Assembly: GCF_015206895.1 (NCBI RefSeq)
Contig: NZ_JADEXU010000074.1
Location: forward strand, 1-32,000
DNA from: Nostoc sp. LEGE 12450
GTDB taxonomy: Bacteria > Cyanobacteriota > Cyanobacteriia > Cyanobacteriales > Nostocaceae
Reading direction: 5' to 3'
Length of the DNA stretch: 32,000 nt
A program made the translations under genes and the position numbers. Numbering within the stretch: the first letter of the stretch is position 1; each line of letters starts with the position of its first letter. A model generated the notes under the pieces. It made no database searches, was not told the DNA's origin, and saw only the letters and a program-made list of their open reading frames with translations. This document shows positions 11,111-30,734 of the stretch, one piece after another.

Positions 11111-11299
11111 AATTTGCTGTTGAAAACGCAATTTAAAAAAACTGGTCTGCATTACACGTTTTAGCCCAAACGTTGAATGCTGCATGAACTATGAGCCTAA
11201 AAAATAAGCTAACTAGAGATTTCTTCCATTAATTGCGTAATTTAGAACAAAAACCATGTACTAATAGTAGAATAAAACGTTAACCTTACGAGGTAGTAA

Positions 11300-14023: not shown

Positions 14024-14159
14024 AGCTAGTGTAAGAGAGCGATTTTTTGCGGAGAAGATAGGTGACAATTAAGCTGGGATTTTAAGCGTTAATCATCCCA
14101 AAACCTTGAAACTTTGTAGACGCAAGTTTGGTGTAACGAACAGTGTGCTGAATATTGTT

Positions 14160-16355: not shown

Positions 16356-16537
16356 AGTTGTTCTACGTGTAATAGCTGGCGAAAACGCTATTAAAAACTT
16401 CGACTACGCAACAGCGATGCCCAGCATTGGCTCTCAAAAGGCTTTAAAGGTGAGGCTTTCAAGATGAAAGTAAGAAATGGCTTCACTCGTATTTCTTAAT
16501 CAGCATGGTTCAAGTAACGTTTCTCTGACGATGCTTT

Positions 16538-17926
16538 TTAATCCCAGTCAGTTTGTGCTGACTGCGGTCGCACCATGTTCTTAAATTTTGTTAAGTGTGC
16601 ATCAAACAGTAGTTGGATTGTGCATGTGGCCCCATCGCGGTTTTTAGCAAGGATAATCTCTGCAATTCCTTTCTCTTGCGTATTAGTATCGTAATATTCG
16701 TCACGATACAACATAATTACTTTGTCCGCGTCCTGCTCAATCCCGCCACTGTCACGTAAATCCGAGAGCATGGGGCGTTTGTTATTACGGTTTTCTACCG
16801 CTCTTGATAGTTGCGATAAACACATAACAGGGGTCTGTAACTTCATCGCTAAACGCTTGAGTCCGCGTGTGAGCTTTTCTATCTCATTGTTTCTGTTGCC
16901 CCCGCCGTTACCATCCATCAGTTGCAGATAATCCACAACGATTAACCCCAAATCACGGCGCTCTTGTGCCATGATTTTACGGCATTCAGATTCTATATAG
17001 CTCAGTGATGGGTCTGGGCGGTCATCAAGGTAAACAGGTAGCTCTGATAGTGTGCCGATGCCCTGTGATAGTGGTTCCCATTGTTTGTTAGAGATGCGCC
17101 CAGTTTTCAAATAGCCGCTTTCTATGCCTGCCTCACCTGAAAGCGCACGCATGGCAATCTGTAGCTTTGACATTTCCAGACTGAACACGACAACCGGAAA
17201 CTGATAAGCTTGGGCTAGATGAAAAGCTATCTGAGCCGCAAACGCTGATTTCCCCATCGCCGGACGACCCGCAACGATAACTAAATCATTGCGGTTAAAC
17301 CCGCAAGTCATTGCATCAAGATCATAAAAGCCCGTGGGAATCCCAGGTAATACTTTACCTTGGCTGCGGTCTTCAATATCCTGAAACAGATTAATCACCA
17401 CTTCGGAAATGTGGCTGGCCCCCGCAGTGTCAGATGATCGCTGCAACTCATAGATAAAGTCCTGTAATTGTGAGAAGGCTTCCTCTAAGGGCGTTTCTTC
17501 ATTGGATTTGTGCTGCAATTCGATTGCAAGGTTTCCCAGTCTACCTAGTTCCCGGCGCTTCCATTTTTCCACAACTAGACCTGCCAGCGCATCAATGTTA
17601 ACTGCTGATACTGTTCTGTCAACCAGCGATGCTAACTTGTTTCGACCGCCGATAATTTCTAACAAACTATTATCAGCTAAATAATTCGTGATCATCAACA
17701 AGTCTGTGGGCAATTCTTGAGCATTAAGTCGAAGGGCTGCGTTGTAGATCCGACCATGAGCGCTGATATAGAAGTGATGCGGCTTCAAAATGTCGCGGAC
17801 ACGTTCTATGGCTGCTGGGTCAAGCAAGATGCCCCCAAGTATCGCCTCTTCAGATTCAATGCTCTGTGGTGGTAGCTTATTGGCTGTGGTGGCAAAAGGA
17901 ATTACGTTGTCGTCACTGGCGTACAT
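16538..17926 (-). CDS. dnaB: Replicative DNA helicase DnaB
   Basis: The N-terminus has PPQSIESEEAILGGILLDP. Walker A is GRPAMGKSAFA. Also present are LIVVDYLQLM, CLSQLSRAVE and RDSGGIEQDADKV, all canonical DnaB motifs. Confidence 0.95.
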   Translation of the reverse strand: MYASDDNVIPFATTANKLPPQSIESEEAILGGILLDPAAIERVRDILKPHHFYISAHGRIYNAALRLNAQELPTDLLMITNYLADNSLLEIIGGRNKLASLVDRTVSAVNIDALAGLVVEKWKRRELGRLGNLAIELQHKSNEETPLEEAFSQLQDFIYELQRSSDTAGASHISEVVINLFQDIEDRSQGKVLPGIPTGFYDLDAMTCGFNRNDLVIVAGRPAMGKSAFAAQIAFHLAQAYQFPVVVFSLEMSKLQIAMRALSGEAGIESGYLKTGRISNKQWEPLSQGIGTLSELPVYLDDRPDPSLSYIESECRKIMAQERRDLGLIVVDYLQLMDGNGGGNRNNEIEKLTRGLKRLAMKLQTPVMCLSQLSRAVENRNNKRPMLSDLRDSGGIEQDADKVIMLYRDEYYDTNTQEKGIAEIILAKNRDGATCTIQLLFDAHLTKFKNMVRPQSAQTDWD

Positions 17927-17999
17927 ATTAATCTCTGATTTCGATTAGGTCTAAATTTTTACAGTCAGATACCCAAAACCCTGAAGAGAAGGGGCTTGG

Positions 18000-19094
18000 T
18001 CAATTAGGAATATCTACAAATCTTTCAGGAAACTTGGCGCTTGCCCATTCGTACCATTTGGCAGATACTTTATGCTTGCAAAACTTAGATAGTCCCTCTG
18101 ACTGGAGCATACTGTAGTAGTGATCGTGCATCCGCGCCTCCCATCTGGGAAAATCATACTTCTTGCGCTGTTTCTCTACTTCTACGGGGTCATTAGCAAA
18201 GTTGTTAATTTTGCGCTCTAATATCCTACAACCCACTTTCCATTGCTCAAATAAGCAAAATATCTCTGTACTACCTTCATCTTTTTTAGAAAGCACTGTA
18301 GTCACGTATGGGGCAACGTTGTTAATGTCTTTGCCCTGCGATCGCTGATAGGTCTGATAGTAAAGCAGAAAATCCACTTCTTTAACTGGGTCATCACTGA
18401 AAACCAAGATTTGAGAATGATTCTCACGCGCCGCGCCGGAATTTAGATCCTCATGAGTGGATTTCTCGTTAGTTGCAGAGACTTTCTCAAAGTTAACAGC
18501 GTAGTGATTATCTGGAAGTGCTTTTTCTTGGTCAATTTCTTTGTTCCTCTTTTCCTCTTTTTTTTTCCCTCCATCGCTCTTAGAGGGATTGACTTTATTA
18601 GAGGTATTTAAGAGGGAATTACTTTCTAGCTCTGTCAGACCTACCCCCCTAGCTCTGTCAGACCTACCCCCTAGCTCTGTCAGACCTACCCCCCCGTTCT
18701 GAGAGACCTGGGTAAGGGTAGGTCTGTGTGAGCTATCCGTACAAAACTCTTTAATAATCGGTATAGGGTTTGACCAATTGCGTCTAGGCGCAACACGATA
18801 AATGCAAGTTGTACCGGGGCGAGACTCTTTGATAATCAAGCCATGTGTCGTTAAAGTCTTTAGCGATCGCTTGACCTGCGCTTCCGACATCCGACAACCT
18901 GCCGCCATGTTCTTATTGCTTTCAAAGGCTTCTCCCTTACCAGCACGTCTTACGATTCGGCTATATATACGAAATGAATATGGATCAAGCCCAAAATCGT
19001 CTAATTCTTTGTGGACAAAAATAAAATTAAAATCATCTCTGTCGTCATGTGCTACATAGCCATGCGCTTGTTCTACATTTCGAGAGTTCATCAT
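18000..19094 (-). CDS. Putative plasmid replication initiator (N-terminal winged-helix DNA-binding domain), directly upstream of dnaB
   Basis: The wHTH-like segment is YSFRIYSRIVRRAGKGEAFESNKNMAAGCRMSEAQVKRSLKTLTTHGLIIKE. Iteron-like repeats sit inside the gene, and it is co-oriented with dnaB at a 73-nt gap. The function is inferred from context. Confidence 0.7.
   Translation of the reverse strand: MMNSRNVEQAHGYVAHDDRDDFNFIFVHKELDDFGLDPYSFRIYSRIVRRAGKGEAFESNKNMAAGCRMSEAQVKRSLKTLTTHGLIIKESRPGTTCIYRVAPRRNWSNPIPIIKEFCTDSSHRPTLTQVSQNGGVGLTELGGRSDRARGVGLTELESNSLLNTSNKVNPSKSDGGKKKEEKRNKEIDQEKALPDNHYAVNFEKVSATNEKSTHEDLNSGAARENHSQILVFSDDPVKEVDFLLYYQTYQRSQGKDINNVAPYVTTVLSKKDEGSTEIFCLFEQWKVGCRILERKINNFANDPVEVEKQRKKYDFPRWEARMHDHYYSMLQSEGLSKFCKHKVSAKWYEWASAKFPERFVDIPN
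18627..18726. repeat. Iteron-like repeats: three direct 22-nt copies plus one partial inverted copy
   Basis: tagctctgtcagacctaccccc occurs at 18627, 18650 and 18672 (spacing 23 and 22 nt). gggtaggtctg at 18716-18726 is the reverse complement of the core cagacctaccc. Because the period is not a multiple of 3, the copies translate in different frames (GVGLTEL / GGRSDRA / RGVGLTELES). Confidence 0.75.
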
Positions 19095-19242
19095 GTTACA
19101 TTCCGAAGTATTTGTAATATTTCGGATAACTCCCTTGCAACGCGAACGCAGAACTGCTTATCATAGAGTCAGCGATCGCGGTTCCGAAAAGTCCTACCAC
19201 AGACAATTTCGTTTCGGAGTTACCGCTTGTGTACAGCCAAAT

Positions 19243-19288
19243 AATCAAGAAACCCGCTTAGATTCCCGTCCGAGCGGGTTTCTTGATT
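19243..19288. other. Perfect 15-bp stem-loop upstream of the rep-like gene
   Basis: aatcaagaaacccgc (19243-19257) and gcgggtttcttgatt (19274-19288), with a 16-nt loop. Confidence 0.6.
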
Positions 19289-19463
19289 GGAACACGGGGC
19301 AAACATTTGGCTAACTGTCTGCCCTTTGGCTCTCTCATATCCTTGCCCTGTGGCTTTTGGATATTACACCCAGTTTCACGCCTTACTGGGACGGCGTTTT
19401 TGCCTATCCAGGCTCCATTGCTCTCCCGCTTCAGTCTCCACATCCGCAAGTTCGCATAATCAA

Positions 19464-19497
19464 CCCCGTAGGCGGGGCAACTGTATATATATATATT
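19464..19497. other. Short GC hairpin followed by a (TA)6 run, a candidate DNA-unwinding element of the origin region
   Basis: ccccgtaggcgggg is followed by tatatatatatat (19484-19496). It lies in the 466-nt non-coding gap between the rep-like gene and the XRE gene. Confidence 0.3.
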
Positions 19498-19560
19498 GTT
19501 TTAAGCGCTCGTCTATATCGTTTAGCCGCTCTGTTATGTCCTGTGGCTGGTCGGTGTTGA

Positions 19561-19797
19561 TCATTTATCCTCCTTGTCTTCTTTAATTTCTTCTGGTGGA
19601 ACCCAGTAAATTAACTCGCTGGGCTGGACACGGTAAAAATCGCAGATTTTGTTTAAAGCTGTAACTTGTGGTATCCAATCAGGATTATCGTATAAGTTGT
19701 AAGCGGTACTGGGTGCTATGCCCGTATCTTTTTGAAAGCGATAGCGAGTAATCCCCAAACCGTCTACAAATTTCTTGACTTGGTTCCTTATAGGCAT
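19561..19797 (-). CDS. XRE/Cro-type helix-turn-helix transcriptional regulator (78 aa)
   Basis: The sequence VKKFVDGLGITRYRFQKDTGIAPSTAYNLYDNP...LNKICDFYRVQPSELI fits a classic Cro/CI HTH. It is divergent from the 19991-25261 operon. Confidence 0.85.
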   Translation of the reverse strand: MPIRNQVKKFVDGLGITRYRFQKDTGIAPSTAYNLYDNPDWIPQVTALNKICDFYRVQPSELIYWVPPEEIKEDKEDK

Positions 19798-19876
19798 TCA
19801 GTAACAATAAACGGTTATCAATACAACCATTTATCATTGCTAATTTCCAACCGTTAGTAAATGCCAATCGATTTAT

Positions 19877-19918
19877 ATTAATGAGCGCTTGACATTAATG
19901 AGCGGTTGTAGTTAATAT
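19877..19918 (+). promoter_or_regulatory. Candidate sigma-70-type promoter with two direct operator-like repeats
   Basis: TTGACA lies at 19889-19894, and after an 18-nt spacer TAATAT lies at 19913-19918. attaatgagcg is repeated at 19877-19887 and 19894-19904. A 9-bp hairpin gtgtccggg/cccggacac follows at 19923-19958. Confidence 0.45.
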
Positions 19919-20053
19919 CATAGTGTCCGGGTTATCGATACGTCAATAGCCCGGACACAGTTATCTAGCTATAAACACAGATTATCTGTATTGCGTCCGC
20001 TCTATATCTGCGGTCGTGGTAATTGTGCGTGGGAGCATCACAAGCGAGGATTC

Positions 20054-20623
20054 ATGCATATCAATTTACGCAATTTAGAAGCAATCAACGAACTACCCCT
20101 TCAGAGAACAATGCTTAATCAAAATCAATTACGAAGGTTAGAAGCAATAGATCGCTGGCTCATAGAAATCCGAGATTCGGAGGAATTCAAACAACTAGAA
20201 TACTCCCCAGATGTGATGCTAGGGGATGCAATACAAGCAGTGGGCGAACTACTTGACGAACACGATCATTGTGATTCCAAGCCCTTGAATTTTACTAATT
20301 CAGAGTGGCATTCATATCTAGAACAAAAGCCAGTAATGCACATTCGCCGCGTGAAGACTTGGCGTGAAAAGATTAACTCATTCATACTCGATGCAGCATC
20401 AGAAGTAGCAATTCTGAGCTTGGTAACTACTAGTTTTATGGTTGTTGGTACTATCTTTTGTCACGGCGTTGACCGCATTGAAGAAAGTAGAGGCGAGGAA
20501 TATGAACCCACATGGATCTACAACGCCAAGATTTTTGAAGGAAGCGCCATCGCCTCTATCGCCGTCTTCCTGGGTGCAAGCTTAACAGGCGCGTGTGTCG
20601 CGGGAGATAAAAATGATGATTGA
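20054..20623 (+). CDS. Hypothetical protein with two C-terminal transmembrane helices (ORF open from TTG 19991)
   Basis: ATG 20054 is preceded by GAGGA. Hydrophobic stretches: VAILSLVTTSFMVVGTIF and AIASIAVFLGASLTGACV. Confidence 0.6.
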   Translation: MHINLRNLEAINELPLQRTMLNQNQLRRLEAIDRWLIEIRDSEEFKQLEYSPDVMLGDAIQAVGELLDEHDHCDSKPLNFTNSEWHSYLEQKPVMHIRRVKTWREKINSFILDAASEVAILSLVTTSFMVVGTIFCHGVDRIEESRGEEYEPTWIYNAKIFEGSAIASIAVFLGASLTGACVAGDKNDD

Positions 20624-20885
20624 TAAAGAGCTTGTAGGATGCGTCACGCTATTGAGCCAGAGCAAAACTTACTTCATTGATGGAACGCTGTACAGATATT
20701 TAACAAGCAGTGACAGTATCAACCACACACAATATTATTTCCGTCCTTTACCGCGTCAGTCTAAGAGTGCTGACTTAAAGCTCAATCGTGACAAAGTACT
20801 AAGGCGCTGCTACGAAGTGCCGAGCTTATATAAACAGCACACAGCAGAGATAACGAAGAACTCAATACAGTTGAGTTTGTTCTAA
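20613..20885 (+). CDS. Hypothetical small protein
   Basis: ATG 20613 is preceded by GGGAGA. It overlaps the previous stop by 11 nt. I recognise no motif. Confidence 0.5.
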   Translation: MMIDKELVGCVTLLSQSKTYFIDGTLYRYLTSSDSINHTQYYFRPLPRQSKSADLKLNRDKVLRRCYEVPSLYKQHTAEITKNSIQLSLF

Positions 20886-21212
20886 CCATTGGTAACAGAT
20901 ACTACCGCGCATCGTGGACAAAGGCTTTGACACAAGCGCGTCAACTAGTCCAAAAGGGGCGCTTTTACCGGGGTAAAAGGAATTTTGTCAATATATCAGA
21001 AACTCTGGCAAGCCTTGTTATTGCGTGATTATAGCCGACGAAAAAAAGACAAAGGCAATTTTTCAGAGTTATTTTTCAGGGTTATTGATAGGTTTCAGCT
21101 AGCGGGTCGTATCAAATACCCCTTTTCAGCTAATTACATACATCAAATACCTTGGATGCATTCGGAATACGCATCGATTTTATACACACCTAAGTAATAC
21201 TTTGGGGGTAAT

Positions 21213-21722
21213 GTGGCAACGAAACAGTATATCGCTAAGTATCATCAGCTAAAACAAATTTACGAGCGTGAGTTAGGAAAAGAGATTGCTGATATCACTT
21301 GGTATCGAGTGGTGGCTACTTTGAAACAGCATTTTAATTTCAACGTGCTGGGTAGCGACGCGAATAAGATAGTTGAGACATTCGCCGGATTTAAACGGCG
21401 CTACGGCAGCTTTACAGGTCGGGGTGAGGGGTTTAGTGAACGCTGGCAAGCATTCAGACATTTCTATGAAATGGATGCTCAATATCAGGGTGGAGAGTTC
21501 TTAAAGCTTCTTGCAGAGCATCTAAAAATCAACCTTGACGATGTACCACGCAGCACTCGTTACTACTGGTTTGAGAAAGCCGGGCTATCTTTCAGCGCTG
21601 AAAATATTTACCACTGCAAGGATTTAGCCCTTGTTGCGTTTATTGCTGCTAAATGGGCAATCAACAGACGACCGCAACCGATAAAATCCGCAACGATCTC
21701 AGTTTTAACACTAGCCCTTTAA
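21213..21722 (+). CDS. Hypothetical protein (169 aa)
   Basis: GTG start preceded by GGGGG. I recognise no motif. Confidence 0.55.
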   Translation: MATKQYIAKYHQLKQIYERELGKEIADITWYRVVATLKQHFNFNVLGSDANKIVETFAGFKRRYGSFTGRGEGFSERWQAFRHFYEMDAQYQGGEFLKLLAEHLKINLDDVPRSTRYYWFEKAGLSFSAENIYHCKDLALVAFIAAKWAINRRPQPIKSATISVLTLAL

Positions 21723-21734
21723 GGAGCAATCATC

Positions 21735-22385
21735 ATGTCTGACAAGTTTACTAACAATGTCCGCGCTCGTTTGTACAAACAGGGTTATCAAGGATTTACC
21801 AAAGACGATTACACAACAGCAGCGATCGCTGTAGAGTGCGATGACCTTGACAATCCCACCAAAGAGCAATTGAGCCAAGCCGTTGACTATCTCAAAGTCA
21901 AATCGACAAGCCAATTATCTGTAACTGATGAACCCGTTGAAGAAACCTTTCTTGTAGGCGTAGAAGATGCACAGCCTGAAGTTGAATCTAATCAGCTTAC
22001 AGTTGCCGAACCAGAAAATCAGATTGTGCTGACAGACCTTGAAAAGCAATCCCTCGTTGCAGATATTGCACAGGGAGCGGGAATTGAACTAAAAGCGGCG
22101 GATGTGAAACAGATTACAGTGTCCATTGCTTCCACCTTCGCATCTAGAAAGGAGTTGAACGAGGCGATTTTTAACGCCCTCGTCCACTTTGCAAGGGAAT
22201 TTAAGAATCAAGAAGTATCCAAAATCCGACGCAAAGCCGACGAAATCAGGCAGACACTCGCAGAAATGGATGATGTTGCAGGCAGTGAACTGACCCAGAT
22301 TAAACAGGCGATGGAGGCCACCGCCCTGGACTACAAAAGCCAGTTTGCAGACCTCGCGTTATCTTTCGCCGGAATCATCGATTAA
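21735..22385 (+). CDS. Hypothetical acidic protein (216 aa)
   Basis: The ATG follows AAGGAG (21720-21725). The composition is E/D/Q-rich. Confidence 0.7.
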   Translation: MSDKFTNNVRARLYKQGYQGFTKDDYTTAAIAVECDDLDNPTKEQLSQAVDYLKVKSTSQLSVTDEPVEETFLVGVEDAQPEVESNQLTVAEPENQIVLTDLEKQSLVADIAQGAGIELKAADVKQITVSIASTFASRKELNEAIFNALVHFAREFKNQEVSKIRRKADEIRQTLAEMDDVAGSELTQIKQAMEATALDYKSQFADLALSFAGIID

Positions 22386-22513
22386 GCCCGGAGGCAAGCT
22401 CACTTACAAACATCTGTTAATTGGGCTTGTGGGGATACCGTTGCTCATTGCACTGCTGGCCCCCCTCTCTCAATGGTTTATCAAAGAATGTTGCACATAC
22501 AGGAGTCAAAAAC

Positions 22514-23161
22514 GTGAAGCATATCAAGAATATCGTTGGTAAGCACGGTAAAAAGCTGAAGGCAAGGGCTGAGAAATTAGGCGTTGCAGACAGCTTAATC
22601 ATGGGTTGCATCAATGGCGACGATGCAGCGCTGACCAAAGTAGGGGAAATGGGTAACGAGGGTGAGCGCATCTTAACCATCATGCCCTACATCACAGATA
22701 ATCTATCCGCGTTTATCAAAGGTACTGAGGAATATAACAAAGGACTTGCAGAGATTTACAAGCAAGCTGGTGCGTCTGGTATTGCTCTCGACAAAGCTAA
22801 TGCCGATTTAACGATCGCAAATTTAAAGTACGGTCATGAGCGCTCAGAAATCGGATTGAAGCTGGCCAGCGACCGCACACTAGAGAATCAGCGCTACAGA
22901 GAAAGCATCGACCTAGTTAAGCTCAAGGCTTACATCGACTATCACATGAGTAAGGTTGACCATCTAGCGGCTGCTAAATCGCAGTTAGCCCGACCTGTAA
23001 AGGCACAGTTAGACGCTGACAGAACTTATGAGATGGAGAAAGCCAAACACCTTCTAACCTATGGTGAAAGCTCAGACCTTGATTTAGTGCCTCGTAAGTC
23101 ATTTACAACTAACAAATTAGTGCAAGCGTTCCGTACTGCTGTTTCTACGATTTTCGAGTAA
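22514..23161 (+). CDS. Hypothetical protein (ORF open from 22421; preferred start GTG 22514)
   Basis: AGGAG at 22501-22505 lies 8 nt upstream of GTG 22514. The sequence looks helical or coiled-coil. Confidence 0.6.
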   Translation: MKHIKNIVGKHGKKLKARAEKLGVADSLIMGCINGDDAALTKVGEMGNEGERILTIMPYITDNLSAFIKGTEEYNKGLAEIYKQAGASGIALDKANADLTIANLKYGHERSEIGLKLASDRTLENQRYRESIDLVKLKAYIDYHMSKVDHLAAAKSQLARPVKAQLDADRTYEMEKAKHLLTYGESSDLDLVPRKSFTTNKLVQAFRTAVSTIFE

Positions 23162-23216
23162 TCAGCATAGTTAAATCCCCTACCAAGTAAGCACTCAGTA
23201 GGGGAAATCAAAGTTA

Positions 23217-23810
23217 GTGATGACAACAATGTTAGATGAACTTGACACCGAATTGCAAGACGGGGACACTGAACAATCACGCTTCTATCAAGACTTTCCT
23301 GATACTGCGTTTACCCAGGATGAACAAGAAGCTATTAAAAGATTCAAGTCCAAGGAAATTGAAAAACTTAATCGTAGTCGCGCTGTCTTGAAAGGCATTG
23401 AATCCTGCGGCTGGGGTGTTACTTCCTATTGCTTGGCTAAGTATTTAGTAATAGCTACAGGCTCGGCGGGGCTAATGCCTGCGGTCGCTATTGTGTTAGG
23501 AATTAATCAAATAGTCAATCGTGATTTGTTGGAGTTCACCGTAAACAAGTCTCCTGAAGGATGGGTTTTTACGGACATGGACAAGGCAATTAAATTTCTC
23601 TTTCAAACAATATTCGGATGCTTTATTTTGTGGACTGCCATCGGTGATTTCTACACCACAATGCAGAACTCACACAAGACTTACGACAACATCAAAGCGA
23701 CTGTAGAAGATTTTAACCGTCTGCCAGAATCAGACAAAACTATCGTGTTTGTGGTGGGTGCATTAGTGGCAGGTGGTGTTGTTTACGGCATCCACAAATC
23801 CAAGTCATGA
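23217..23810 (+). CDS. Hypothetical integral membrane protein (197 aa)
   Basis: It has several hydrophobic helices (VTSYCLAKYLVIATGSAGLMPAVAIVLGI, FGCFILWTAIGDF, IVFVVGALVAGGVVYGI). Its stop overlaps the next start (ATGA). Confidence 0.7.
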   Translation: MMTTMLDELDTELQDGDTEQSRFYQDFPDTAFTQDEQEAIKRFKSKEIEKLNRSRAVLKGIESCGWGVTSYCLAKYLVIATGSAGLMPAVAIVLGINQIVNRDLLEFTVNKSPEGWVFTDMDKAIKFLFQTIFGCFILWTAIGDFYTTMQNSHKTYDNIKATVEDFNRLPESDKTIVFVVGALVAGGVVYGIHKSKS

Positions 23811-25261
23811 AAGCTCAATCCCTACTAAAAGTTGGTGCTATCACAGCTTTACTTTTAGGGCTGGCGAGTGCTTATTACTACGGGCAGACACCGCACCCTT
23901 ATCAGTTTACTGAAGTGCGATTTTGTCCGGTAACAGCTAATAAACGCACAATTAAGCATTATAAATTACCTGCAAAATCACAATCGGCACTTGATAATAA
24001 ATACTGCCGTTTCAAGTACAGATTGCTCACAGAAGTATGGAAGTCACGACAGTTTAATGATGTTGTGTCTCTCCCTGATGGTGCTTTCATTACGTCAGAT
24101 TTGGCTCCATCGTCCAATCCTAGCCTGTGGTTATTAGTCGCACCCGCTTTTGTTTGGATGGGTTATTACTGCTGGGCTGCCAAAGATGAGATTGATAACG
24201 AGTCAAGTTTTCAACGTTTGGAGTCCTTCAAAACATCCATCAAGCGCCAAGGTTTAATTACTAGGACTGAGCGCGATTTGCAGTCATACGAATCAGGACG
24301 GATATCAGACAAGCATAAGAAGGACATCGACAGACGCGCTGATAATTTGTTAGTCCAAGAACGATATATCTCCTTAGAGGAATTGCAGCAACAGTACCAG
24401 CGTCAATCAGAGCTTGAAGATTTACAGTTTGATAATACTAAAAAACAGTTCGCTGTCGCTGACTCCGTAGCTGACAAATCCATTGCTGAAAATAGAAGAG
24501 ATAAGCGCAAGGCGGACGCAGAAAACATCAATCCCAGTAGTGAAGCATCTCAGGCTCCACAAGGCACGAGCGCCCAAGAATTAGTTCAACTTTTGAAAAA
24601 TCATGAGGGTGGCTGGCTATGGGATGTCATCGAATCAACAAAACCAGTTTGGGTGTTGGGAGGCCAAGGTAGTGGTAAAAGCAGTTTTGCTGCATCAATT
24701 GTTATGTGTAGGAAGGTGATTTTTGATTGGAATATTACATCAATCGTTGATGCTCATGGACATAAGAACAGAGCTAAATCTTGGAAGTTGTTGATACCTT
24801 TAGAGCCAGAATTAATCGGCGAACGCAACGATTATTTAGCTATTGGTGAGGCAATGAATGAAGCTGTTCAACGTTGGAGTGACCGCACAGAAAACGACAG
24901 ACCCATTCAAACACTTTGGGATGAATTAACACAACTTTCTCTGCAAGATGATTGTAAAGAATCAGTCAAAAAATTTGTGAGACATTCACTTACTGACGTT
25001 CGCAAGGCTGCCGAATATCTAGTTTGTATTTCTCATGCTTTTACTAATGCCGCCAGTGGCAATGCTGAGGGTTTTAATGATTTAAGGCAAAGCGAAACTA
25101 TCCAAATCAAGCGCAAGTCAAAGAACGGTCGCGTACCTCTAAACCATGCTGAAATTAGTGGTCTTTATGATGACGACGGAAATCTGATTGAATCGAAGCG
25201 CGTCACAGTTCCAGACTGGTTTTATCCTGATAGCTTGCTCAGATTTCTTAGCGGTCGTTAG
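23807..25261 (+). CDS. Membrane-anchored P-loop NTPase (484 aa), a possible DNA-transfer or assembly ATPase
   Basis: N-terminal TM helix (VGAITALLLGLASAYYY) and a second helix (LWLLVAPAFVWMGYYCW). A charged coiled-coil follows. Walker A is VLGGQGSGKSSFA, and the Walker-B-like motif is IQTLWDELTQ. Confidence 0.8.
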   Translation: MKAQSLLKVGAITALLLGLASAYYYGQTPHPYQFTEVRFCPVTANKRTIKHYKLPAKSQSALDNKYCRFKYRLLTEVWKSRQFNDVVSLPDGAFITSDLAPSSNPSLWLLVAPAFVWMGYYCWAAKDEIDNESSFQRLESFKTSIKRQGLITRTERDLQSYESGRISDKHKKDIDRRADNLLVQERYISLEELQQQYQRQSELEDLQFDNTKKQFAVADSVADKSIAENRRDKRKADAENINPSSEASQAPQGTSAQELVQLLKNHEGGWLWDVIESTKPVWVLGGQGSGKSSFAASIVMCRKVIFDWNITSIVDAHGHKNRAKSWKLLIPLEPELIGERNDYLAIGEAMNEAVQRWSDRTENDRPIQTLWDELTQLSLQDDCKESVKKFVRHSLTDVRKAAEYLVCISHAFTNAASGNAEGFNDLRQSETIQIKRKSKNGRVPLNHAEISGLYDDDGNLIESKRVTVPDWFYPDSLLRFLSGR

Positions 25262-25338
25262 AGAAATATTTATCGTCAGTCACAAAACCTGAAAACTTTG
25301 TCGATTAGTCGATTAAAAATAGTGAGGGATTTACATTT

Positions 25339-25545
25339 ATGCACCCAATAGAATTTAAGAAAAAGTGGCAATTAACTTACAACGAGCTAGCACTCGTCTT
25401 AGGTTACGAAAATGATTTCACTGTCCGTTGTTGGGGGATAAATGGAGGACACAGGCGCAACCCTCAAAAAGTTGTTTATGTCGCTTGTCACCTTCTAGAT
25501 GAAAAATGGTCATCTGAGGGGAAACAAATAGATTCTTACCTTTGA
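25339..25545 (+). CDS. Small hypothetical protein (68 aa), copy 1 of a tandem pair
   Basis: The protein begins MHPIEFKKKWQLTYNELALVLGY... It is ~75% identical to the adjacent copy. Confidence 0.7.
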   Translation: MHPIEFKKKWQLTYNELALVLGYENDFTVRCWGINGGHRRNPQKVVYVACHLLDEKWSSEGKQIDSYL

Positions 25546-25596
25546 TAATTTATATCCGCGTGTCTGCTAATTAATTACTTGAAATAGGTGAATACT

Positions 25597-25803
25597 ATGC
25601 ACCCAATAGAATTTAAGAAAAAATGGCAGTTAACTTACGACGAGCTTGCACTTGTTTTAGGTTATCAAGGTGATTATACCGTCCGTTCCTGGGGTACAAA
25701 TGGAAGACACAAGCGCAATCCTCAAAATGTTGTTTATGTCGCTTGTCGCCTTCTAGATGAGAAGTGGTCAACTCAGGGGAAACTTGTGGATTCTTATCTT
25801 TGA
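25597..25803 (+). CDS. Small hypothetical protein (68 aa from ATG 25597; ORF open from GTG 25588), copy 2 of a tandem pair
   Basis: The protein begins MHPIEFKKKWQLTYDELALVLGY... AGGTGA lies upstream. The start was chosen by analogy with copy 1. Confidence 0.7.
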   Translation: MHPIEFKKKWQLTYDELALVLGYQGDYTVRSWGTNGRHKRNPQNVVYVACRLLDEKWSTQGKLVDSYL

Positions 25804-25854
25804 CTATACTTTTTTAAACTAGGATTATTCACCCCTTCAGCAATTATTTATTAA

Positions 25855-25923
25855 GCGGGTGCTTGACCGGAAGAGGCAAACGAGCCACGCAGTGGCGATG
25901 TGCGTCTGAGGTCAAGCACCTGC
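25855..25923. other. GC-rich long stem-loop (14-bp stem with one mismatch, and an internally structured 41-nt loop)
   Basis: gcgggtgcttgacc (25855-25868) pairs with ggtcaagcacctgc (25910-25923). An inner hairpin gccacgcagtggc lies at 25884-25896. Confidence 0.6.
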
Positions 25924-25974
25924 AACTTATTTAATCCGTCAATCTCTTGAGCCAAGGAAGTAACATAATTAAAG

Positions 25975-26250
25975 ATGAGAAATTATGGAAGCGAACAGGC
26001 CATGATTACTAAAGAAGAAATTACCATCAAAGTCCCCTCCTTGGTAGCAGAGGCATACCGCAATGCCACTGAAGAAGAACGGGAACAATTGCAACTTAAG
26101 ATTGCGGCAATTATGCAGTCTCAATTTACAACTCCAAGACTTGAGGCGATTGCACGTTTAAGAAATACGATGGATAAAGCTAGCCTTGAAGCACAAGAGC
26201 GAGGATTAACGCCTGAAATCTTAGAATCGATTTTGAATGATGACGAATAA
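25975..26250 (+). CDS. Putative antitoxin of the PIN toxin-antitoxin pair
   Basis: Small acidic ORF overlapping the PIN gene by 14 nt. This is the classic type II TA layout. Confidence 0.7.
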   Translation: MRNYGSEQAMITKEEITIKVPSLVAEAYRNATEEEREQLQLKIAAIMQSQFTTPRLEAIARLRNTMDKASLEAQERGLTPEILESILNDDE

Positions 26251-26653
26251 TCGACGGTTCGTATTTGATACGAATGTGCTGATTAGTGCATTTTTGTTTA
26301 GTCAAAGCAAGCCACGTCAGGCATTAGATCAAGCTACTGTTATTGGCGTTATCGTATTATCAAGTTCTGTGTTATCGGAATTAGAAGAGGTTTTATATCG
26401 TCCCAAATTTGATAGATATCTCACCAAAGAAAGGCGGCAAGAATTTCTAGAAGATTTAACAGAAAACGCTCAGTTTATTGACGTGACTGAGCAGATTAAT
26501 GAATGCCGAGATCCCAAAGATAACAAATATTTGGAATTAGCACTCAGTGGTCAAGCAGAGTGTATTGTTACCGGAGATGATGATTTGCTGGTGCTAAACC
26601 CCTGGAGGGGCATTGAGATTCTGACTGTTCAAGAATTTTTGGCAAAGAACTAG
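26237..26653 (+). CDS. PIN-domain toxin (PIN_3-like family)
   Basis: The sequence has RFVFDTNVLISAFL..., ECRDPKDNKYLELAL and CIVTGDDDLL, with conserved acidic residues in PIN spacing. Confidence 0.9.
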   Translation: MMTNNRRFVFDTNVLISAFLFSQSKPRQALDQATVIGVIVLSSSVLSELEEVLYRPKFDRYLTKERRQEFLEDLTENAQFIDVTEQINECRDPKDNKYLELALSGQAECIVTGDDDLLVLNPWRGIEILTVQEFLAKN

Positions 26654-26817
26654 GATGAATTACCCTACACCCGACAGCCCGATTCTGTTAAGGAAAGTTA
26701 TTTATGGTTTCTCATTCCAACTTCTACGGAACCAAGCTTTCACCCCAGGACGCAACTGATATCAGTATTGATATCGCCGGGTGTCTGACCACTATATATA
26801 AGCCAGCTTTATCAATC

Positions 26818-26838
26818 GCTCTCTGTAGAGAGTTTTTT
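26818..26838 (+). terminator. Weak candidate intrinsic terminator after the TA operon
   Basis: The stem ctctc/gagag has a tgta loop and is followed by tttttt (26833-26838). The stem is short and low in GC. Confidence 0.3.
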
Positions 26839-26969
26839 GGCACTTGAAAGATAAGTAATGCTTAACTGAGGTAACTTGTGGGGTGGATGTTCACGAAAGC
26901 ATCAGGGTTTGGGAGAATGGGAAGTGTCCATATTTCGACGCGTACACCGGACACTACCAGCGAGAATAA

Positions 26970-27572
26970 ATGAGACCGCCACCCCCAACTCGTCTACCTA
27001 ACAAGCATTATAGGTCTAGAGAATACCTTACACCAAGCGAGGTGCGAAGTCTTCTTGATGCCGCACTAGAACGCAAAGCTCGTTATTCTCACCGTGATTA
27101 TACACTGATGCTGATGATGTTTCGCCACGGCTTGCGGGTGGGGGAAGCTGTAGGGGCTAAGTGCGGTTTAAGGTGGGATGCAGTGATGTGGGGCGAACGT
27201 CAGATTTTCATCACCAGGGAAAAGGGCAGTGACTCTGGGGTGCATCCCTTGAGAGAGGATGAATTAGTTTTGCTCAAAGAACTCAGAGAGATGTTGCCCG
27301 ATAGCAAATATATTTTCGTTTCCGAGCGCGGTGAGGTGATGTCTACTGATGCAGTGCGAAAGCTGCTTGGGCGGCTGGCGGCGCAGGCTGGGCTTGATAT
27401 CAAAGTTCACTGTCACATGATGCGCCATGCTTGCGGTTACTATCTGGTGAATCAGGGTTACAACACCAGAGAAATCCAGGACTTTTTGGGACACCGTGAT
27501 ATCAAACACACTGAAAAATATACCAAGCTGAACGCTCGACGCTTCCTTAATTTTGATTGGGGTGATTTATGA
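26970..27572 (+). CDS. Small tyrosine recombinase of the FimB/FimE type (200 aa)
   Basis: The sequence has YLTPSEVRSLLDAA, FRHGLRVGEA, HCHMMRHACGYYLVNQGYNTREIQDFLGHRDIKHTEKY and ARRF. The R..HxxR..H..Y catalytic pattern and the length match the FimB/E-like invertases. Confidence 0.9.
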   Translation: MRPPPPTRLPNKHYRSREYLTPSEVRSLLDAALERKARYSHRDYTLMLMMFRHGLRVGEAVGAKCGLRWDAVMWGERQIFITREKGSDSGVHPLREDELVLLKELREMLPDSKYIFVSERGEVMSTDAVRKLLGRLAAQAGLDIKVHCHMMRHACGYYLVNQGYNTREIQDFLGHRDIKHTEKYTKLNARRFLNFDWGDL

Positions 27573-30364
27573 CATTCTTATATTAGAGCGTTTTTGAGAT
27601 AATTTATTTTCACATATCTTTTGAAAATCTATAGGTAGAAAATAGATTTCTTAGAATAAGTTTAATTGTATACATTCTTTTGTACTTACTATTTCCTCTT
27701 CCTTTTCTAATGTTTCTAATATTTTACCTTTATGTTTACCAGGACGATTAGTAGGTATTATTAATATTGACTTTATTTCATGTTTTTCAATTATTCCTGC
27801 GAAGTAAAACCATGAAAGTAATCTACTAGTATAATGATCAAATTTATTCCTTGTAATGGGTCTTATATGTGTTGTAAATAATTCATTATATTCAGACGCT
27901 TTTGAGTTATCTTTATCTGGATATATTGTTTTTAACAAGTCTTTAAGCATCTGTCTGTTAAAATATGTTCCTGGGCAAATTATATGATTTTTAGGTTTAT
28001 TACTTCTGTTGACCTCTTTAATAATTAAATGTTCTTTTAATTGTTCTCCTAAATAATCTGCGATTTCATCGTTGTTTAGCTTTAATAAATCTTCTGCAAC
28101 TGAAAGTGAGTTACTTTTTGTATCATATTCAACCTGGAAGAAATGGCGTAAATCGCTAATAATGTTATCAATGATTCTAGATTTAGGATTATTCGATATC
28201 ATTTTAGACTTTATTAGTTTATTTATTAAATCTGATTTGGTTTTTTCTGTCTCCAACATACGAAATACTTCTAATATGAAGTAAACAGGACGTTTTGGTA
28301 TATAAGTTGTACTAAAATCTGGTAATTGAACTTCGTTAGTTAAAATATATTCACGCAAAATATCGGATGTAACTGTATAGTCAAAGCCTGATTGAATAAT
28401 TAATTTTTTTTCTATTAATATTTTTATTTCTTTTTCATAAATTCCAAATATATTGCTAGTTTCATAATGGGCTATCTTTTGGAGACATTCAAATTCTCTT
28501 GGGTGTAAATCTTTTAAATCATCTGCAAGCATATCAGTTACCAATTTACTAATTTGCTGATATTTTATTGGAAATTGGGAATCTGTTTGGTTCTTGGAAA
28601 ATCTAGTAAATAATTTTCTTAGTAACCAAGGGAAAGCATAACATTCCTCTAAAATCCATTCTTCTAATTGATTGAGTTTCTTCAATTCTTGGGATTTGTT
28701 TGGTTTTTGTTTTAAGTATTTTTTAAAAATGTAAATATAGTTTTTAGCATCTTTGGGTACAAATTCATCAATTGTAAATAATTCCATTTCCTCTCTTAGT
28801 TTTTCCCATCTATATCTTATATCTTCGTTTAAAACTAAAGATGCTGCTTTTGTCCAAGAAAAACCTAATACTAGATTTGCTTTTTCTAAACAAAGTTCGT
28901 GAATTAATGTTTCAAATAAATTAAAGGTCTTTTCGAGTCTTGGCTGCCGTAGTAAATGTTCAAAATGATCAAAAAAGACAACAATTACCTTATTATCGTC
29001 TCTTATTTTTTTTAATACTTCTTTGATTGATGATTGATTTAAAAATAATGAATTTTCTTTTATTTTTATTTCATCACATATATATGGAGGTAGTTCAATG
29101 AACCCTTTTTCAATTGCATTTGCAATAGCTATTTTAATTGCTATTGCTCCAAAATATTCAGTTTTTGCAAATTTTGCATCAACTTGTTTGATAAATACAT
29201 TGTTACTGTAAAATTCTTCACTTTCTGATTTTAATTTCAAAATTAAAGATGATTTACCTATGCCTGAATGTCCTTGAAAACAAATAATTCTTTTTGCAGT
29301 TTTATTATCTTTTACATTAGAAATAAAATTCCAGAAATCTTCCTTTTTTTCGTCTCTACCAACAAAATATTTAGGATTACATGCTGTATTATCAACATCA
29401 AAGTCTTCAGCAAAATTAACTGGTGAAATTATCTCGTTATCAGTATTTTTGTATAGTCCATCAAAAAAATATTTGTGTTTTATAACTGTTACTTTACTTA
29501 TGATACTGTTAAGTATTTCTTTTGTAATTTGCTTTGCTTCAATAATCAGGTTTGATTTTTTATAACTTGAATTTTTAAATATATATTGATATATTATCTT
29601 TGGAGATTGAACATTAAGCGAACTAGCACTTAAACATTTAGCGATAAGCATTTCCTTGATGTATTCAACTTGCTCAGTTGTTAAATTTTTAGTAATTAAA
29701 TACTTTGATAAATTACTAAATAAAACGGATTCTATATCGTCTAATCCAGATGTTTGTTGAATCTCTATTTTTTTTAATACTTGAATAATAGTTTTTTGTT
29801 GGTTATCTGCCCTTATTATATTTTTAGCTGCTATATTATCCAATAAAAAAATTAAATCTTTATCTATATTATCTATCTCATTTATATCAACCTTATGAGC
29901 TAAATTTAATAAATACTGCAAGTTACTGCCATTTTCTTGTTCGTCCCAAAAACCACAATTGGCAGCTATTATAAATTTTTCAAATTGGTTATCACTAAAA
30001 AATGAGTCATGGTTGATAAATCTTATTATTGTTTTAGTTATTTCCTTCTCATTAGCTTTAAATGGTTCTTTTTCTTTAGCTCTAGTTTTAACTTGAATAC
30101 CAATAAATTTTTTGTTAACTCGTTCTACTAAAATGTCTTCATGGTGTTCACAATATATGGAACTTATTTCGGTATCTTTTTCCAACAACGACAAAGATAG
30201 CTGTGCTGCATAAATAGCTTGATAGCGAAAACGTCTCTGTATATCGTCACCTGGATCTTTACTTATAAAATTCTCTGGTGTTATTGATTCATTCATAAGC
30301 TGATTTCCTTTATATTGATGTAAAAATTATTATTTCACAATTGTGTATAGTATTTGAATTTATC
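27573..30364. other. Compositionally distinct AT-rich islet (spot-counted lines give roughly 15-28% GC, versus ~40-58% in flanking lines)
   Basis: GC was counted by eye on several 60-nt lines inside (for example 28381, 29101, 29821) and outside (for example 27361). The shift is sharp at both gene boundaries. Confidence 0.6.
27651..30296 (-). CDS. 881-aa fusion: an N-terminal PD-(D/E)xK nuclease resembling the Cap4/DUF4297 dsDNA endonuclease domain, a central STAND/AAA-type P-loop NTPase, and a C-terminal helical region. Avs-like single-gene defence candidate.
   Basis: The N-terminus reads GDDIQRRFRYQAIYAAQLSLSLL...IYCEHHEDILVE...IGIQVKTR. The centre has YFVGRDEKKEDF, then Walker A CFQGHSGIGKSSL, then Walker B VIVVFFDHFEHL. 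AAGGAAA lies 8 nt upstream of the ATG. Confidence 0.8.
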   Translation of the reverse strand: MNESITPENFISKDPGDDIQRRFRYQAIYAAQLSLSLLEKDTEISSIYCEHHEDILVERVNKKFIGIQVKTRAKEKEPFKANEKEITKTIIRFINHDSFFSDNQFEKFIIAANCGFWDEQENGSNLQYLLNLAHKVDINEIDNIDKDLIFLLDNIAAKNIIRADNQQKTIIQVLKKIEIQQTSGLDDIESVLFSNLSKYLITKNLTTEQVEYIKEMLIAKCLSASSLNVQSPKIIYQYIFKNSSYKKSNLIIEAKQITKEILNSIISKVTVIKHKYFFDGLYKNTDNEIISPVNFAEDFDVDNTACNPKYFVGRDEKKEDFWNFISNVKDNKTAKRIICFQGHSGIGKSSLILKLKSESEEFYSNNVFIKQVDAKFAKTEYFGAIAIKIAIANAIEKGFIELPPYICDEIKIKENSLFLNQSSIKEVLKKIRDDNKVIVVFFDHFEHLLRQPRLEKTFNLFETLIHELCLEKANLVLGFSWTKAASLVLNEDIRYRWEKLREEMELFTIDEFVPKDAKNYIYIFKKYLKQKPNKSQELKKLNQLEEWILEECYAFPWLLRKLFTRFSKNQTDSQFPIKYQQISKLVTDMLADDLKDLHPREFECLQKIAHYETSNIFGIYEKEIKILIEKKLIIQSGFDYTVTSDILREYILTNEVQLPDFSTTYIPKRPVYFILEVFRMLETEKTKSDLINKLIKSKMISNNPKSRIIDNIISDLRHFFQVEYDTKSNSLSVAEDLLKLNNDEIADYLGEQLKEHLIIKEVNRSNKPKNHIICPGTYFNRQMLKDLLKTIYPDKDNSKASEYNELFTTHIRPITRNKFDHYTSRLLSWFYFAGIIEKHEIKSILIIPTNRPGKHKGKILETLEKEEEIVSTKECIQLNLF

Positions 30365-30664
30365 CTACTGTGTTATCCTTAATTTAATTGCTTTTAGCGG
30401 GGGCAAATTCTGCTCAACCACGCCCAAAACTCGATTTAAGTTTACTTTTAAATAATCGTGAATCAGTATATCTCTGAAACCAGCTACTTGCTGCCAAGGG
30501 ACATCGGGATAAGCTGCTCTGATTTCGGAAGACAACCGCTTTGTTGCTTCTCCAATAATTTCAAAATTTCTAATTACTGCATCCTGAATTATTGTGGTTT
30601 GCAAAAATGCCTCTTTACCATCCTGGGTATAAGGTGGATCTAGCGAAGCTGTCATCAGGGGCAA
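30365..30664 (-). CDS. hepT: HepT/DUF86-family HEPN RNase toxin homolog. It is N-terminally short and has no adjacent MNT antitoxin gene.
   Basis: The sequence has QDAVIRNFEIIGEATKRL, PWQQVAGFRDILIHDY (Rx4HxY motif intact) and NLPPLK. An in-frame stop at 30677-30679 prevents extension. No ORF lies upstream. Confidence 0.75.
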   Translation of the reverse strand: MPLMTASLDPPYTQDGKEAFLQTTIIQDAVIRNFEIIGEATKRLSSEIRAAYPDVPWQQVAGFRDILIHDYLKVNLNRVLGVVEQNLPPLKAIKLRITQ

Positions 30665-30680
30665 GATAGCTGGAAACTAT

Positions 30681-30734
30681 TGCTATATATGCGCTATAGC
30701 ATTTTTGCAAAGAGCGTTTAAAACGCTCTTTTTT
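30681..30734 (+). terminator. Two tandem plus-strand hairpin plus T-run elements (intrinsic-terminator-like)
   Basis: tgctata/tatagca (30681-30701) is followed by ttttt. aagagcg/cgctctt (30710-30730) is followed by tttt. No annotated plus-strand gene ends here. Confidence 0.4.

Follow-up and report, generated by a model that had tools for sequence, protein, structure and literature searches.

The window analyzed here is a stretch of 32,000 nucleotides from Nostoc sp. LEGE 12450 (contig NZ_JADEXU010000074.1, positions 1 to 32,000). Its reverse strand carries, at 27651-30296, a gene for an 881-aa protein in which a Cap4-type nuclease, a probable STAND-type NTPase, and a winged-helix C-terminus follow one another. 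The product is a compact, NLR-like nuclease that ends in winged-helix units and carries a Lamassu-captured effector; it is not a new kind of system. We give a probability of about 0.6 to the reading that the gene is a self-contained, single-protein conflict system (anti-phage or anti-plasmid) of the NLR/Avs type, in which a DNase would be gated by oligomerization. The parts of the gene are listed below, with the basis of each assignment in parentheses.

27651-30296, reverse strand: whole gene, Cap4 nuclease, STAND NTPase, and winged-helix protein of 881 aa (reading of the open reading frame)
30297-30364, reverse strand: AT-rich upstream region of 68 nt with an AAGGA ribosome-binding site and one promoter-like match (sequence reading)
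29487-30296, reverse strand: N-terminal effector module, aa 1-270, predicted Cap4/DUF4297 PD-(D/E)xK double-stranded DNA (dsDNA) nuclease of the Lamassu LmuA type (Pfam and PADLOC)
30087-30149, reverse strand: nuclease catalytic core, E50-HH-E53-D54 ... Q68-V-K70 (invariance in the alignment)
29367-29486, reverse strand: linker, aa 271-310, conserved with homologs bearing other effectors (alignments A1 and A2)
28773-29366, reverse strand: nucleotide-binding domain, aa 311-508 (invariant residues, sub-threshold profiles, and model)
inside the nucleotide-binding domain, reverse strand: FVGRD, aa 311-315, and GFSW, aa 478-481 (sequence)
29247-29273, reverse strand: Walker A GHSGIGKSS, aa 342-350 (sequence)
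28959-28988, reverse strand: Walker B VIVVFFDHFE, aa 437-446 (sequence)
28596-28757, reverse strand: helical domain, aa 514-567, with a GxP-like motif, AFPWL, at nt 28623-28637 (three-helix bundle in the model)
28338-28553, reverse strand: winged-helix domain 1 of the STAND core, aa 582-653 (three helices and a hairpin in the model)
27759-28286, reverse strand: putative C-terminal sensor, aa 671-846, made up of winged-helix units WH2 (671-732) and WH3 (735-846) (models)
27651-27758, reverse strand: low-confidence tail, aa 847-881, and stop codon (predicted local distance difference test score, pLDDT, below 50)

The gene is a single unbroken open reading frame (ORF) that starts with ATG, the AAGGA lies 8 nt 5′ of this start codon, and the product is 100% identical to WP_193948003.1 of the same strain, encoded on a 36.7-kb contig. 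A promoter scan of the upstream region returned a site at 30358-30329 that is not above the chance expectation for this region. The GC content of the gene is 26.5%, compared with 42.6% in the remaining window, and its GC content at third codon positions (GC3) is 17.3%, compared with 30-50% in the other long ORFs of the window. AT-richness is equal in the two halves of the gene, and the composition shifts sharply at both ends of the ORF. The original prediction, made by reading the sequence by eye, had described an AT-rich islet carrying a foreign gene; the islet is borne out by this comparison, and the foreign origin is backed both by composition and by the sister-plasmid comparison given below.

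A gene of such foreign composition might be an inactive or decaying horizontal acquisition. Beyond its composition, this view could draw on the truncated HepT gene next to it and on the state of the homolog in Anabaena sp. 90 and Dolichospermum, which is split or partial. Against it, the 881 codons have stayed intact in very AT-rich DNA, the product aligns with homologs from end to end, and all catalytic and nucleotide-binding residues that are invariant in the family have been retained; we regard decay as very improbable. An Anabaena protein covers 97% of the gene product at 54% identity, and an open frame of 881 codons at 26% GC that is aligned with its homologs over the whole length is, judged from sequence, far beyond chance. 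The split homolog itself (cluster P0009; WP_041458099.1 and WP_041458098.1) occurs as two adjacent ORFs of ~504 and ~459 aa or as a partial copy, which suggests frameshift or pseudogenization of the Cap4-STAND homolog in some strains.

Nuclease domain and NTPase core

The Pfam profile PF14130 (Cap4_nuclease) matches aa 14-225 at E=1.4e-21, with 78.1 bits against a cutoff of 26.2 and with the whole 200-position model covered, and the LmuA model of PADLOC matches the gene product at 6.7e-11. The domain carries the motifs F23-R24-Y25-Q26, E50-H-H-E53-D54, and I67-Q68-V69-K70. An alignment of 24 Cap4 domains was examined, consisting of the gene product and 23 homologs, LmuA proteins of Lamassu operons included; R22, R24, Y25, Q26, C49, E50, E53, D54, G66, Q68, K70, T71, N113, and K255 are invariant in it. 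Because the catalytic positions are invariant across the aligned Cap4 homologs, the predicted PD-(D/E)xK-type nuclease site is taken to be intact. The original prediction had called a Cap4/DUF4297 nuclease from these motifs, and the Pfam score together with the invariant residues agrees with that call; all the motifs that it had named, in the nuclease and in the NTPase, lie where it had placed them. Searches of PDB sequences with the whole protein, the profile of the module shared with its relatives, the nuclease profile, and the nuclease alone returned only generic P-loop matches.

The nucleotide-binding domain follows a linker that is conserved in homologs with other effectors, and for this reason the junction between the two modules is placed at the start of the linker. 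In proteins with SMEK_N or HsdR_N N-termini, the shared module starts at about aa 285. In family alignments of the nucleotide-binding domain, G313, R314, G347, K348, S349, S350, D443, F445, and F479 are invariant, and G347, K348, S349, and D443 are invariant in 133 sequences. The helical domain has the family consensus QGFPWLLKKL, in which the gene product carries A in place of G; P556 is invariant in the full-length alignments A1 (20 sequences) and A4 (133), and W557 and L558 are invariant or nearly so, varying by alignment. This region gives a weak profile match to the helical region of the ADR1 NB-ARC domain, and winged-helix domain 1, which has a conserved D645-I646 motif, gives a weak match to NarL-type HTH profiles.

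The region aa 285-881 was modeled with AlphaFold2 from an alignment of 30 sequences, and the model reached a mean pLDDT of 83.2 and a predicted template modeling score (pTM) of 0.70. In it, a nucleotide-binding domain with five strands is followed by a helical domain of three helices, which carries [G/A]FPWLL, and by a winged helix. When the NTPase model was compared with known structures by Foldseek, the best matches were ORC4, ORC5, and Cdc6 (E about 3e-7), and the archaeal ATPase_2 structures 2qen and 2fna, ZAR1, SAMD9, Avs4, and Apaf-1 were also found at E 1e-6 to 1e-4, matches that place the model in the AAA+/STAND neighborhood. The profile nearest to the NTPase is nSTAND1 (PF20703), a computationally defined clade (PMC8195603). 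We assign the protein to it because homologs exceed the threshold of this profile (P0012 at 38.5, P0025 at 40.2, and P0013 at 33.0 bits), not by the score of the gene product itself, and an nSTAND1 match at E<=1e-3 was obtained for 20 of 30 family members. The model and the scores of the homologs thus support reading aa 311-653 as a STAND-type NTPase, nearest to the nSTAND1 clade. The original prediction had named a STAND-type NTPase from the Walker motifs, and the assignment holds by a less direct route, through homologs at 33-40 bits and through a model that matches ATPase and STAND folds.

Beyond the NTPase, the models contain two further units, WH2 and WH3, each of three helices and a hairpin, followed by a disordered tail. 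When the C-terminus was modeled alone (aa 645-881), the pLDDT was above 90 over roughly 100 residues. A Pfam scan of this region at E<=5 in four family members gave no match. P659, Y665, N711, Y822, and W829 are conserved, and the two units are near neutral, with net charges of +2 and +1. The original prediction had left ~450 aa of helical sequence after the Walker motifs unassigned; about 140 aa of these belong to the helical and winged-helix subdomains of the NTPase, and only ~235 aa (aa ~645-881) stay without an assignment.

Family distribution and effector exchange

An exhaustive search of 1.84 billion representatives with a profile of the shared module (aa 285-881) yielded 1152 proteins at the threshold E<=1e-3; the number falls to 655 when E<=1e-10 is required and to 449 clusters when E<=1e-30 is required. 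Family members are mostly ~900 aa long with an N-terminus of ~235 aa. The N-terminal effector was classified in 157 of them: 151 have an Mrr_cat/HsdR-N-type domain, five a Cap4 domain, and one SMEK_N. All five Cap4-bearing members are from Nostocales (Nostoc, Anabaena, and Dolichospermum). An independent scan of species-representative genomes, covering 185,579 species, found at least 94 carrier species, which belong to Cyanobacteria, Bacteroidota, Bacillota, Proteobacteria, Chloroflexota, Planctomycetota, Acidobacteriota, Verrucomicrobiota, and some Archaea; at the 70 loci with a scorable effector, Mrr was counted 69 times, HsdR-N once, and Cap4 not at all. The family of the NTPase and C-terminal module is rare and patchily scattered across phyla. 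No phage-encoded homologs were found.

Among the closest known relatives are the Mrr_cat-nSTAND1-wHTH proteins (wHTH, winged helix-turn-helix), annotated "restriction endonuclease" or "AAA-associated domain-containing protein", such as P0013 of Aeromonas hydrophila. Their linker, NTPase, and most of the C-terminus are homologous to those of the gene product, at 23-36% identity, with E down to 1e-66 and with common invariant motifs. They differ in having an Mrr-type effector, in an extra end domain of ~90-100 aa that most of them carry, and in the methylase coupling of a few. Many distant family members have such an additional C-terminal domain, AAA_assoc_C in some, whereas the cyanobacterial clade is without it; HTH_IclR and TrmB domains are also added in relatives. 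The suggestion of the original prediction that the protein may be a distinct family therefore needs to be divided: its module belongs to an existing family of ~450-650 clusters that normally carries Mrr, and what is distinctive is the LmuA-derived Cap4 effector together with the short winged-helix C-terminus.

The origin of the nuclease domain can be traced further. Stand-alone Cap4 proteins of ~420 aa are the closest to aa 1-265, a segment that is 48-53% identical to the nearest cyanobacterial LmuA-like proteins and ~29-45% identical to more distant ones. One ~420-aa relative matches the PADLOC LmuA model over its full length (2e-27), and two other close relatives are found in three-gene Lamassu operons, in which the nuclease is accompanied by a ~180-aa protein and by an AAA_23/SMC-like ATPase of 648 aa. 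In a neighbor-joining tree of Cap4 domains, the STAND-fused copies form one clade (100% bootstrap) inside the cyanobacterial LmuA clade (100%). The gene product and LmuA are thus alike in the N-terminal ~265 aa and in the catalytic residues. The similarity ends at about aa 265-270, where LmuA enters its own C-terminal domain; this domain, which binds LmuB/LmuC and mediates tetramerization in LmuA (PMC12663957), is absent from the gene product, and the STAND module is in its place. No LmuB/LmuC was found nearby: the immediate neighbors are a recombinase and a HepT remnant, and no SMC/AAA_23-type domain was detected among the 20 window ORFs scanned. Lacking both the LmuA C-terminal domain and these partners, the gene is not a Lamassu member.

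The shared module groups differently from the Cap4 domain. In the module tree, the cyanobacterial clade has 100% support and is nested among Mrr-type members; within this clade the gene product joins the SMEK_N- and HsdR-N-bearing proteins (92% bootstrap) and not the other Cap4 proteins. Its module is 65% identical to that of the SMEK_N protein, 62% to that of the HsdR-N protein, and 57-59% to those of other Cap4 proteins. The simplest history consistent with both trees would be a single capture of an LmuA nuclease by a family member in Nostocales, followed by replacement of the effector in sister lineages. Lamassu effectors include Cap4, Mrr, and SMEK (PMC12663957), and both systems therefore draw on the same effector pool. 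The gene thus offers a clean natural case of effector exchange between two defense systems, with an LmuA nuclease on a STAND switch that appears to have been replaced again in sister lineages. When PADLOC 2.0 models were applied, the gene product and nine relatives were matched only through their effector domains, by LmuA for Cap4 and by the Argonaute-associated REase for SMEK_N.

A separate observation concerns the Cap4 domain of P0014, a metagenomic protein of 1411 aa, which is 37% identical to that of the gene product and leads straight into a long array of TPRs. P0014 showed no match to a P-loop NTPase family, and it is a different coupling of a Cap4 effector to a sensor.

Every family member checked is AT-rich relative to its host. 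Values for members of the family and for two LmuA genes of Lamassu are as follows.

Anabaena family member: gene GC 0.27, flank GC 0.385
Sphaerospermopsis family member: gene GC 0.28, flank GC 0.39
Cronbergia family member: gene GC 0.27, flank GC 0.39
Aeromonas family member: gene GC 0.36, flank GC 0.62
Microcoleus Lamassu LmuA: gene GC 0.32, flank GC 0.42
Aphanothece Lamassu LmuA: gene GC 0.32, flank GC 0.44

Proposed mechanism and competing explanations

STAND proteins are autoinhibited monomers that oligomerize when their sensor binds a ligand. By analogy, the resting gene product would be a nucleotide-bound, autoinhibited monomer. An infection-derived ligand, either a phage protein as for Avs or a nucleic acid, would bind the C-terminal winged-helix region, and this binding would lead to nucleotide exchange and to NTP-dependent oligomerization of the NTPase. 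Oligomerization would in turn gather the Cap4 domains into an active dimer or tetramer, and the active nuclease would degrade cellular and invader dsDNA non-specifically, bringing phage or plasmid propagation to a stop. Two studied systems provide the precedent: in SeAvs3 and SeAvs7, Cap4 is active as tetramers scaffolded by the NTPase (PMC13581612), and LmuA forms tetramers via its C-terminal domain after release from LmuBC (PMC12663957). It is because the latter domain has been replaced by the STAND module that STAND oligomerization is proposed to assemble the Cap4 domains here; the module would stand in both for the tetramerizing C-terminal domain of LmuA and for the LmuB/LmuC sensor.

Among the closest known systems, Avs3 and Avs7 (Gao 2022; Lee et al. 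2026, PMC13581612) share with this arrangement a single gene in which Cap4 is followed by a STAND NTPase (nucleotide-binding, helical, and winged-helix domains) and a C-terminal region, and they probably share the logic of ligand-induced oligomerization as well. The gene product differs in that it is roughly half the size of Avs3/Avs7, its Cap4 is LmuA-derived, its NTPase is nearest nSTAND1, and no PDB Avs chain is matched by sequence. Avs sensors are TPR-like and at least 400 aa long, whereas its C-terminus is ~235 aa and winged-helix-like. The order of effector, STAND, and sensor is thus that of Avs, while membership of a named Avs family and a large repeat-type sensor were not found. The original prediction of a compact Avs-like candidate stands for the architecture but has no counterpart among the PADLOC Avs/bNACHT models.

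Bacterial STAND/NLR-like immunity has been mapped mainly via proteins with large TPR sensors, and a 2026 survey of 589 STAND clades restricted its clustering to sensors of at least 400 aa (PMC13581612). The present gene stands for the short-sensor STAND fraction that surveys of this kind omit. At 881 aa in a single gene, it is a compact and easily cloned candidate with which a new trigger class could be sought. If it senses a phage protein, it would be one more Avs-type family.

Whether the gene acts alone was assessed from the neighborhoods of its relatives, most of which are chromosomal. Neighbors were clustered without bias (462 ORFs from 80 loci), and neighbor families recur in at most 8 of the 80 loci; since no family exceeds this number, a conserved partner gene was rejected and the gene is regarded as a single-gene system. 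Recurrent neighbors include tyrosine integrases (seven loci), resolvases (four), and PglZ (three). The neighborhoods are not conserved, being housekeeping genes broken by VapBC, Uma2, a type ISP restriction-modification enzyme, HEPN, integrases, and transposases. An association with defense islands or mobile elements is present, through the plasmid slot of the gene itself and through relatives near restriction-modification, Hma, PglZ, HEPN, integrase, and resolvase genes. Membership of MADS/MANTIS, suggested by a weak mad8 match and by DUF499 neighbors, was considered and rejected, as the mad8 match is marginal and the MANTIS nuclease is an unrelated PLD-helicase. At one locus (L001 12648-13889, Anabaena sphaerica), a 413-aa AAA_16/NPHP3_N-type ATPase with FVGRD...GVPGSGKS begins 11 nt after the stop codon of the homolog; it has no detectable relationship to the family, does not recur at the other loci, and was rejected as a family partner.

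A minority of loci, those of some distant Mrr-type relatives, are linked to methylases. In three of the 80, a neighbor cluster overlaps the family gene by 3-39 nt, and the member of this cluster that was tested is a ~1000-aa N6_N4 DNA methylase. At locus L013 (6101-14437), a tight co-oriented cluster runs from a methylase through the family gene and DUF1828 to a ResIII helicase and a TnsA-like nuclease, and at L014 (654-10808), HmaB and HmaC lie directly upstream of the family gene. Other linked loci, with methylase, HmaB/HmaC, or PglZ neighbors, include L061 223-3282 (methylase type) and L055 6164-8188. These arrangements hint that some family members act in systems based on methylation, and they provide a testable link between NLR-like switches and restriction-modification. 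No methyltransferase was found in the window or at the cyanobacterial loci, which sets the gene apart from restriction-modification-like systems.

Several results weigh against an oligomerization-gated conflict system of the NLR/Avs type. The gene product itself scores 22.3-23.4 bits against nSTAND1 (cutoff 27.1) and 21-22 bits against AAA_16 (cutoff 32.6), and ATPase_2 and NACHT are likewise below threshold. None of the PADLOC Avs/bNACHT models matches the gene product or nine of its relatives. The C-terminal ~235 aa are short and of winged-helix topology, without TPR or another repeat sensor, and a Foldseek search with the C-terminal model gave no significant relative (best E 0.26). Furthermore, no hypervariable sensor is apparent: the mean consensus fraction is 0.39-0.41 in WH2/WH3 and 0.46-0.49 in the NTPase core, and variability so close to that of the NTPase speaks neither for nor against a sensor role of the C-terminus. 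No experimental report was found on this family, for which a defense role is predicted, and accessions of family proteins turned up in no searchable paper. Both the oligomerization and the nuclease activity of the gene product are what we infer by analogy. Finally, the top fold matches of the NTPase are to ORC/Cdc6 and not to NLRs, and this, like the methylase coupling of some relatives, is a better fit to a mechanism directed at DNA than to recognition of a protein pattern.

Such a mechanism would make the protein an NTP-dependent, restriction-like DNA sensor and nuclease, whose winged helices bind DNA directly, whose ORC/Cdc6-like NTPase assembles on it, and whose N-terminal nuclease then cleaves it. 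The DNA bound would be either foreign DNA without a host mark or DNA with a phage modification, and the protein would act as a restriction factor instead of killing the cell as a receptor for protein patterns. The Nostoc version, coming without a methyltransferase, would be modification-dependent (type IV-like) or would sense DNA structure. The ancestral effector of the family, Mrr_cat, is the catalytic domain of type IV restriction enzymes, and a winged-helix C-terminus to which relatives add HTH_IclR, TrmB, and AAA_assoc_C would suit DNA binding. Although not significant, the Foldseek list for the C-terminus consists mostly of winged-helix DNA-binding proteins (Zur/Fur, PadR, IclR, the cullin WHB, CapW, and the recognition domains of FokI and N.BspD6I). 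BrxC/DUF499 ATPases of BREX and BREX-related systems have a similar layout, with a STAND/ORC-Cdc6-type ATPase followed by several wHTH domains (PMC12839542), and one relative of the gene lies directly after a DUF499 gene; these ATPases differ from the gene product in that no sequence homology is detectable, an N-terminal DNase is lacking, and the systems are multi-gene and methylase-containing. Four points speak against the restriction-like mechanism: methylase coupling is seen in a few percent of loci and in no cyanobacterial one, the winged-helix units are near neutral in net charge, the C-terminal fold matches are not significant, and the Cap4 nucleases studied to date are non-specific suicide DNases activated by oligomerization. 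On balance, we consider the restriction-like mechanism unlikely, though it is the main competitor and by no means negligible.

A related proposal keeps the NLR/Avs-type switch and concerns only its trigger. The winged-helix C-terminus may be a nucleic-acid sensor, the family then being STAND switches that sense foreign DNA or RNA, with methylation serving as self-protection in the methylase-coupled relatives. We hold this proposal to be rather doubtful. If true, it would provide a mechanistic bridge between NLR/Avs immunity and restriction-modification, with the Nostoc variant having swapped Mrr for a Lamassu Cap4.

Plasmid context and neighboring genes

The window belongs to a family of mobilizable Nostoc plasmids of 32-38 kb. 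Plasmid p057_L of Nostoc sp. C057 matches it best (61% coverage, 92.8% identity), and the homology of the backbone extends over 5804-11155 and 16407-26918 of the window, ending just before a recombinase gene. The genes of the backbone, those of the cargo, and the two neighbors of the Cap4-STAND gene are listed below.

5447-8236, reverse strand: MobA/VirD2 relaxase (domain scan)
8217-8729, reverse strand: NikA/MobC
9597-10376, forward strand: ParA-like
10376-11110, forward strand: DUF6753
16538-17926, reverse strand: DnaB
3494-5161, reverse strand: TPR-HNH cargo, no p057_L homology
11906-14023, forward strand: NB-ARC-TPR cargo, no p057_L homology
14106-16355, forward strand: pentapeptide-repeat protein cargo, 749 aa, no p057_L homology
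26970-27572, forward strand: tyrosine recombinase, 200 aa (Phage_integrase, 1.4e-35)
30365-30664, reverse strand: HepT-like ORF, 99 aa, TTG start (1.2e-24)

The Cap4-STAND gene is cargo in a variable slot outside the p057_L-homologous backbone, and in p057_L the equivalent cargo encodes NACHT, caspase-family, and PIN proteins together with an "ATP-binding protein". On the window plasmid, conflict-type genes occupy at least three such variable slots. Small Nostoc plasmids of this type look like shuttles for NLR-like genes.

The tyrosine recombinase is found at the same position in both plasmids (26918-27572 of the window; 13695-14352 of L010), in a form without the N-terminal core-binding domain, but the two are only 51% identical, and for this reason it is taken as the boundary of the variable segment. 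A hotspot of recombination may lie at this border of the cargo slot. That it was the integrase that brought the gene was rejected, as its sister-plasmid counterpart is in place at 51% identity and nucleotide homology ends at 26918. Searches for att-like direct or inverted repeats flanking the islet returned only short AT-rich chance matches. On the other side, the HepT-like ORF lies 68 nt upstream of the Cap4-STAND gene on the same strand and is preceded by a perfect hairpin with a 10-bp stem (30709-30731). It has kept the R-x4-H-x-Y motif and has lost its N-terminal helix and the MNT partner, and the description of it as a HepT remnant in the original prediction was fair. VapBC also adjoins the cargo slot.

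With a relaxase, MobC/NikA, a ParA-like protein, and DnaB on the plasmid, VapBC and the HepT remnant next to the slot, and a slot whose content differs between sister plasmids, the gene might serve the plasmid itself, through exclusion, by destroying plasmids that compete with it, or through addiction, by killing cells without the plasmid. This is quite improbable: most relatives are chromosomal, and no antitoxin-like partner occurs among the neighbors at the 80 loci. The trigger-gated nuclease mechanism would moreover be the same, and the difference would lie in the beneficiary only.

Other features of the window were observed in passing. When the sister plasmid is compared by BLAST, offset matches at 6188-7370, inside the relaxase gene, appear as a ladder with a spacing of ~183 nt, which indicates that the C-terminal half of the relaxase contains tandem repeats of ~61 aa. 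At 2000-3500 there is a second low-GC stretch (0.31-0.35) with short ORFs only, which may be non-coding or another insert of foreign origin. Two small paralogous genes lie in tandem (25339-25545 and 25588-25803) and encode 68 and 71 aa; they start MHPIEFKKKWQLTY... and are without Pfam match; the pair is conserved in p057_L at 85-86% nucleotide identity. Just ahead of this pair, at 23807-25261, a 484-aa backbone protein without Pfam or PADLOC match carries a Walker A-like GGQGSGKSS and is likewise conserved in p057_L.

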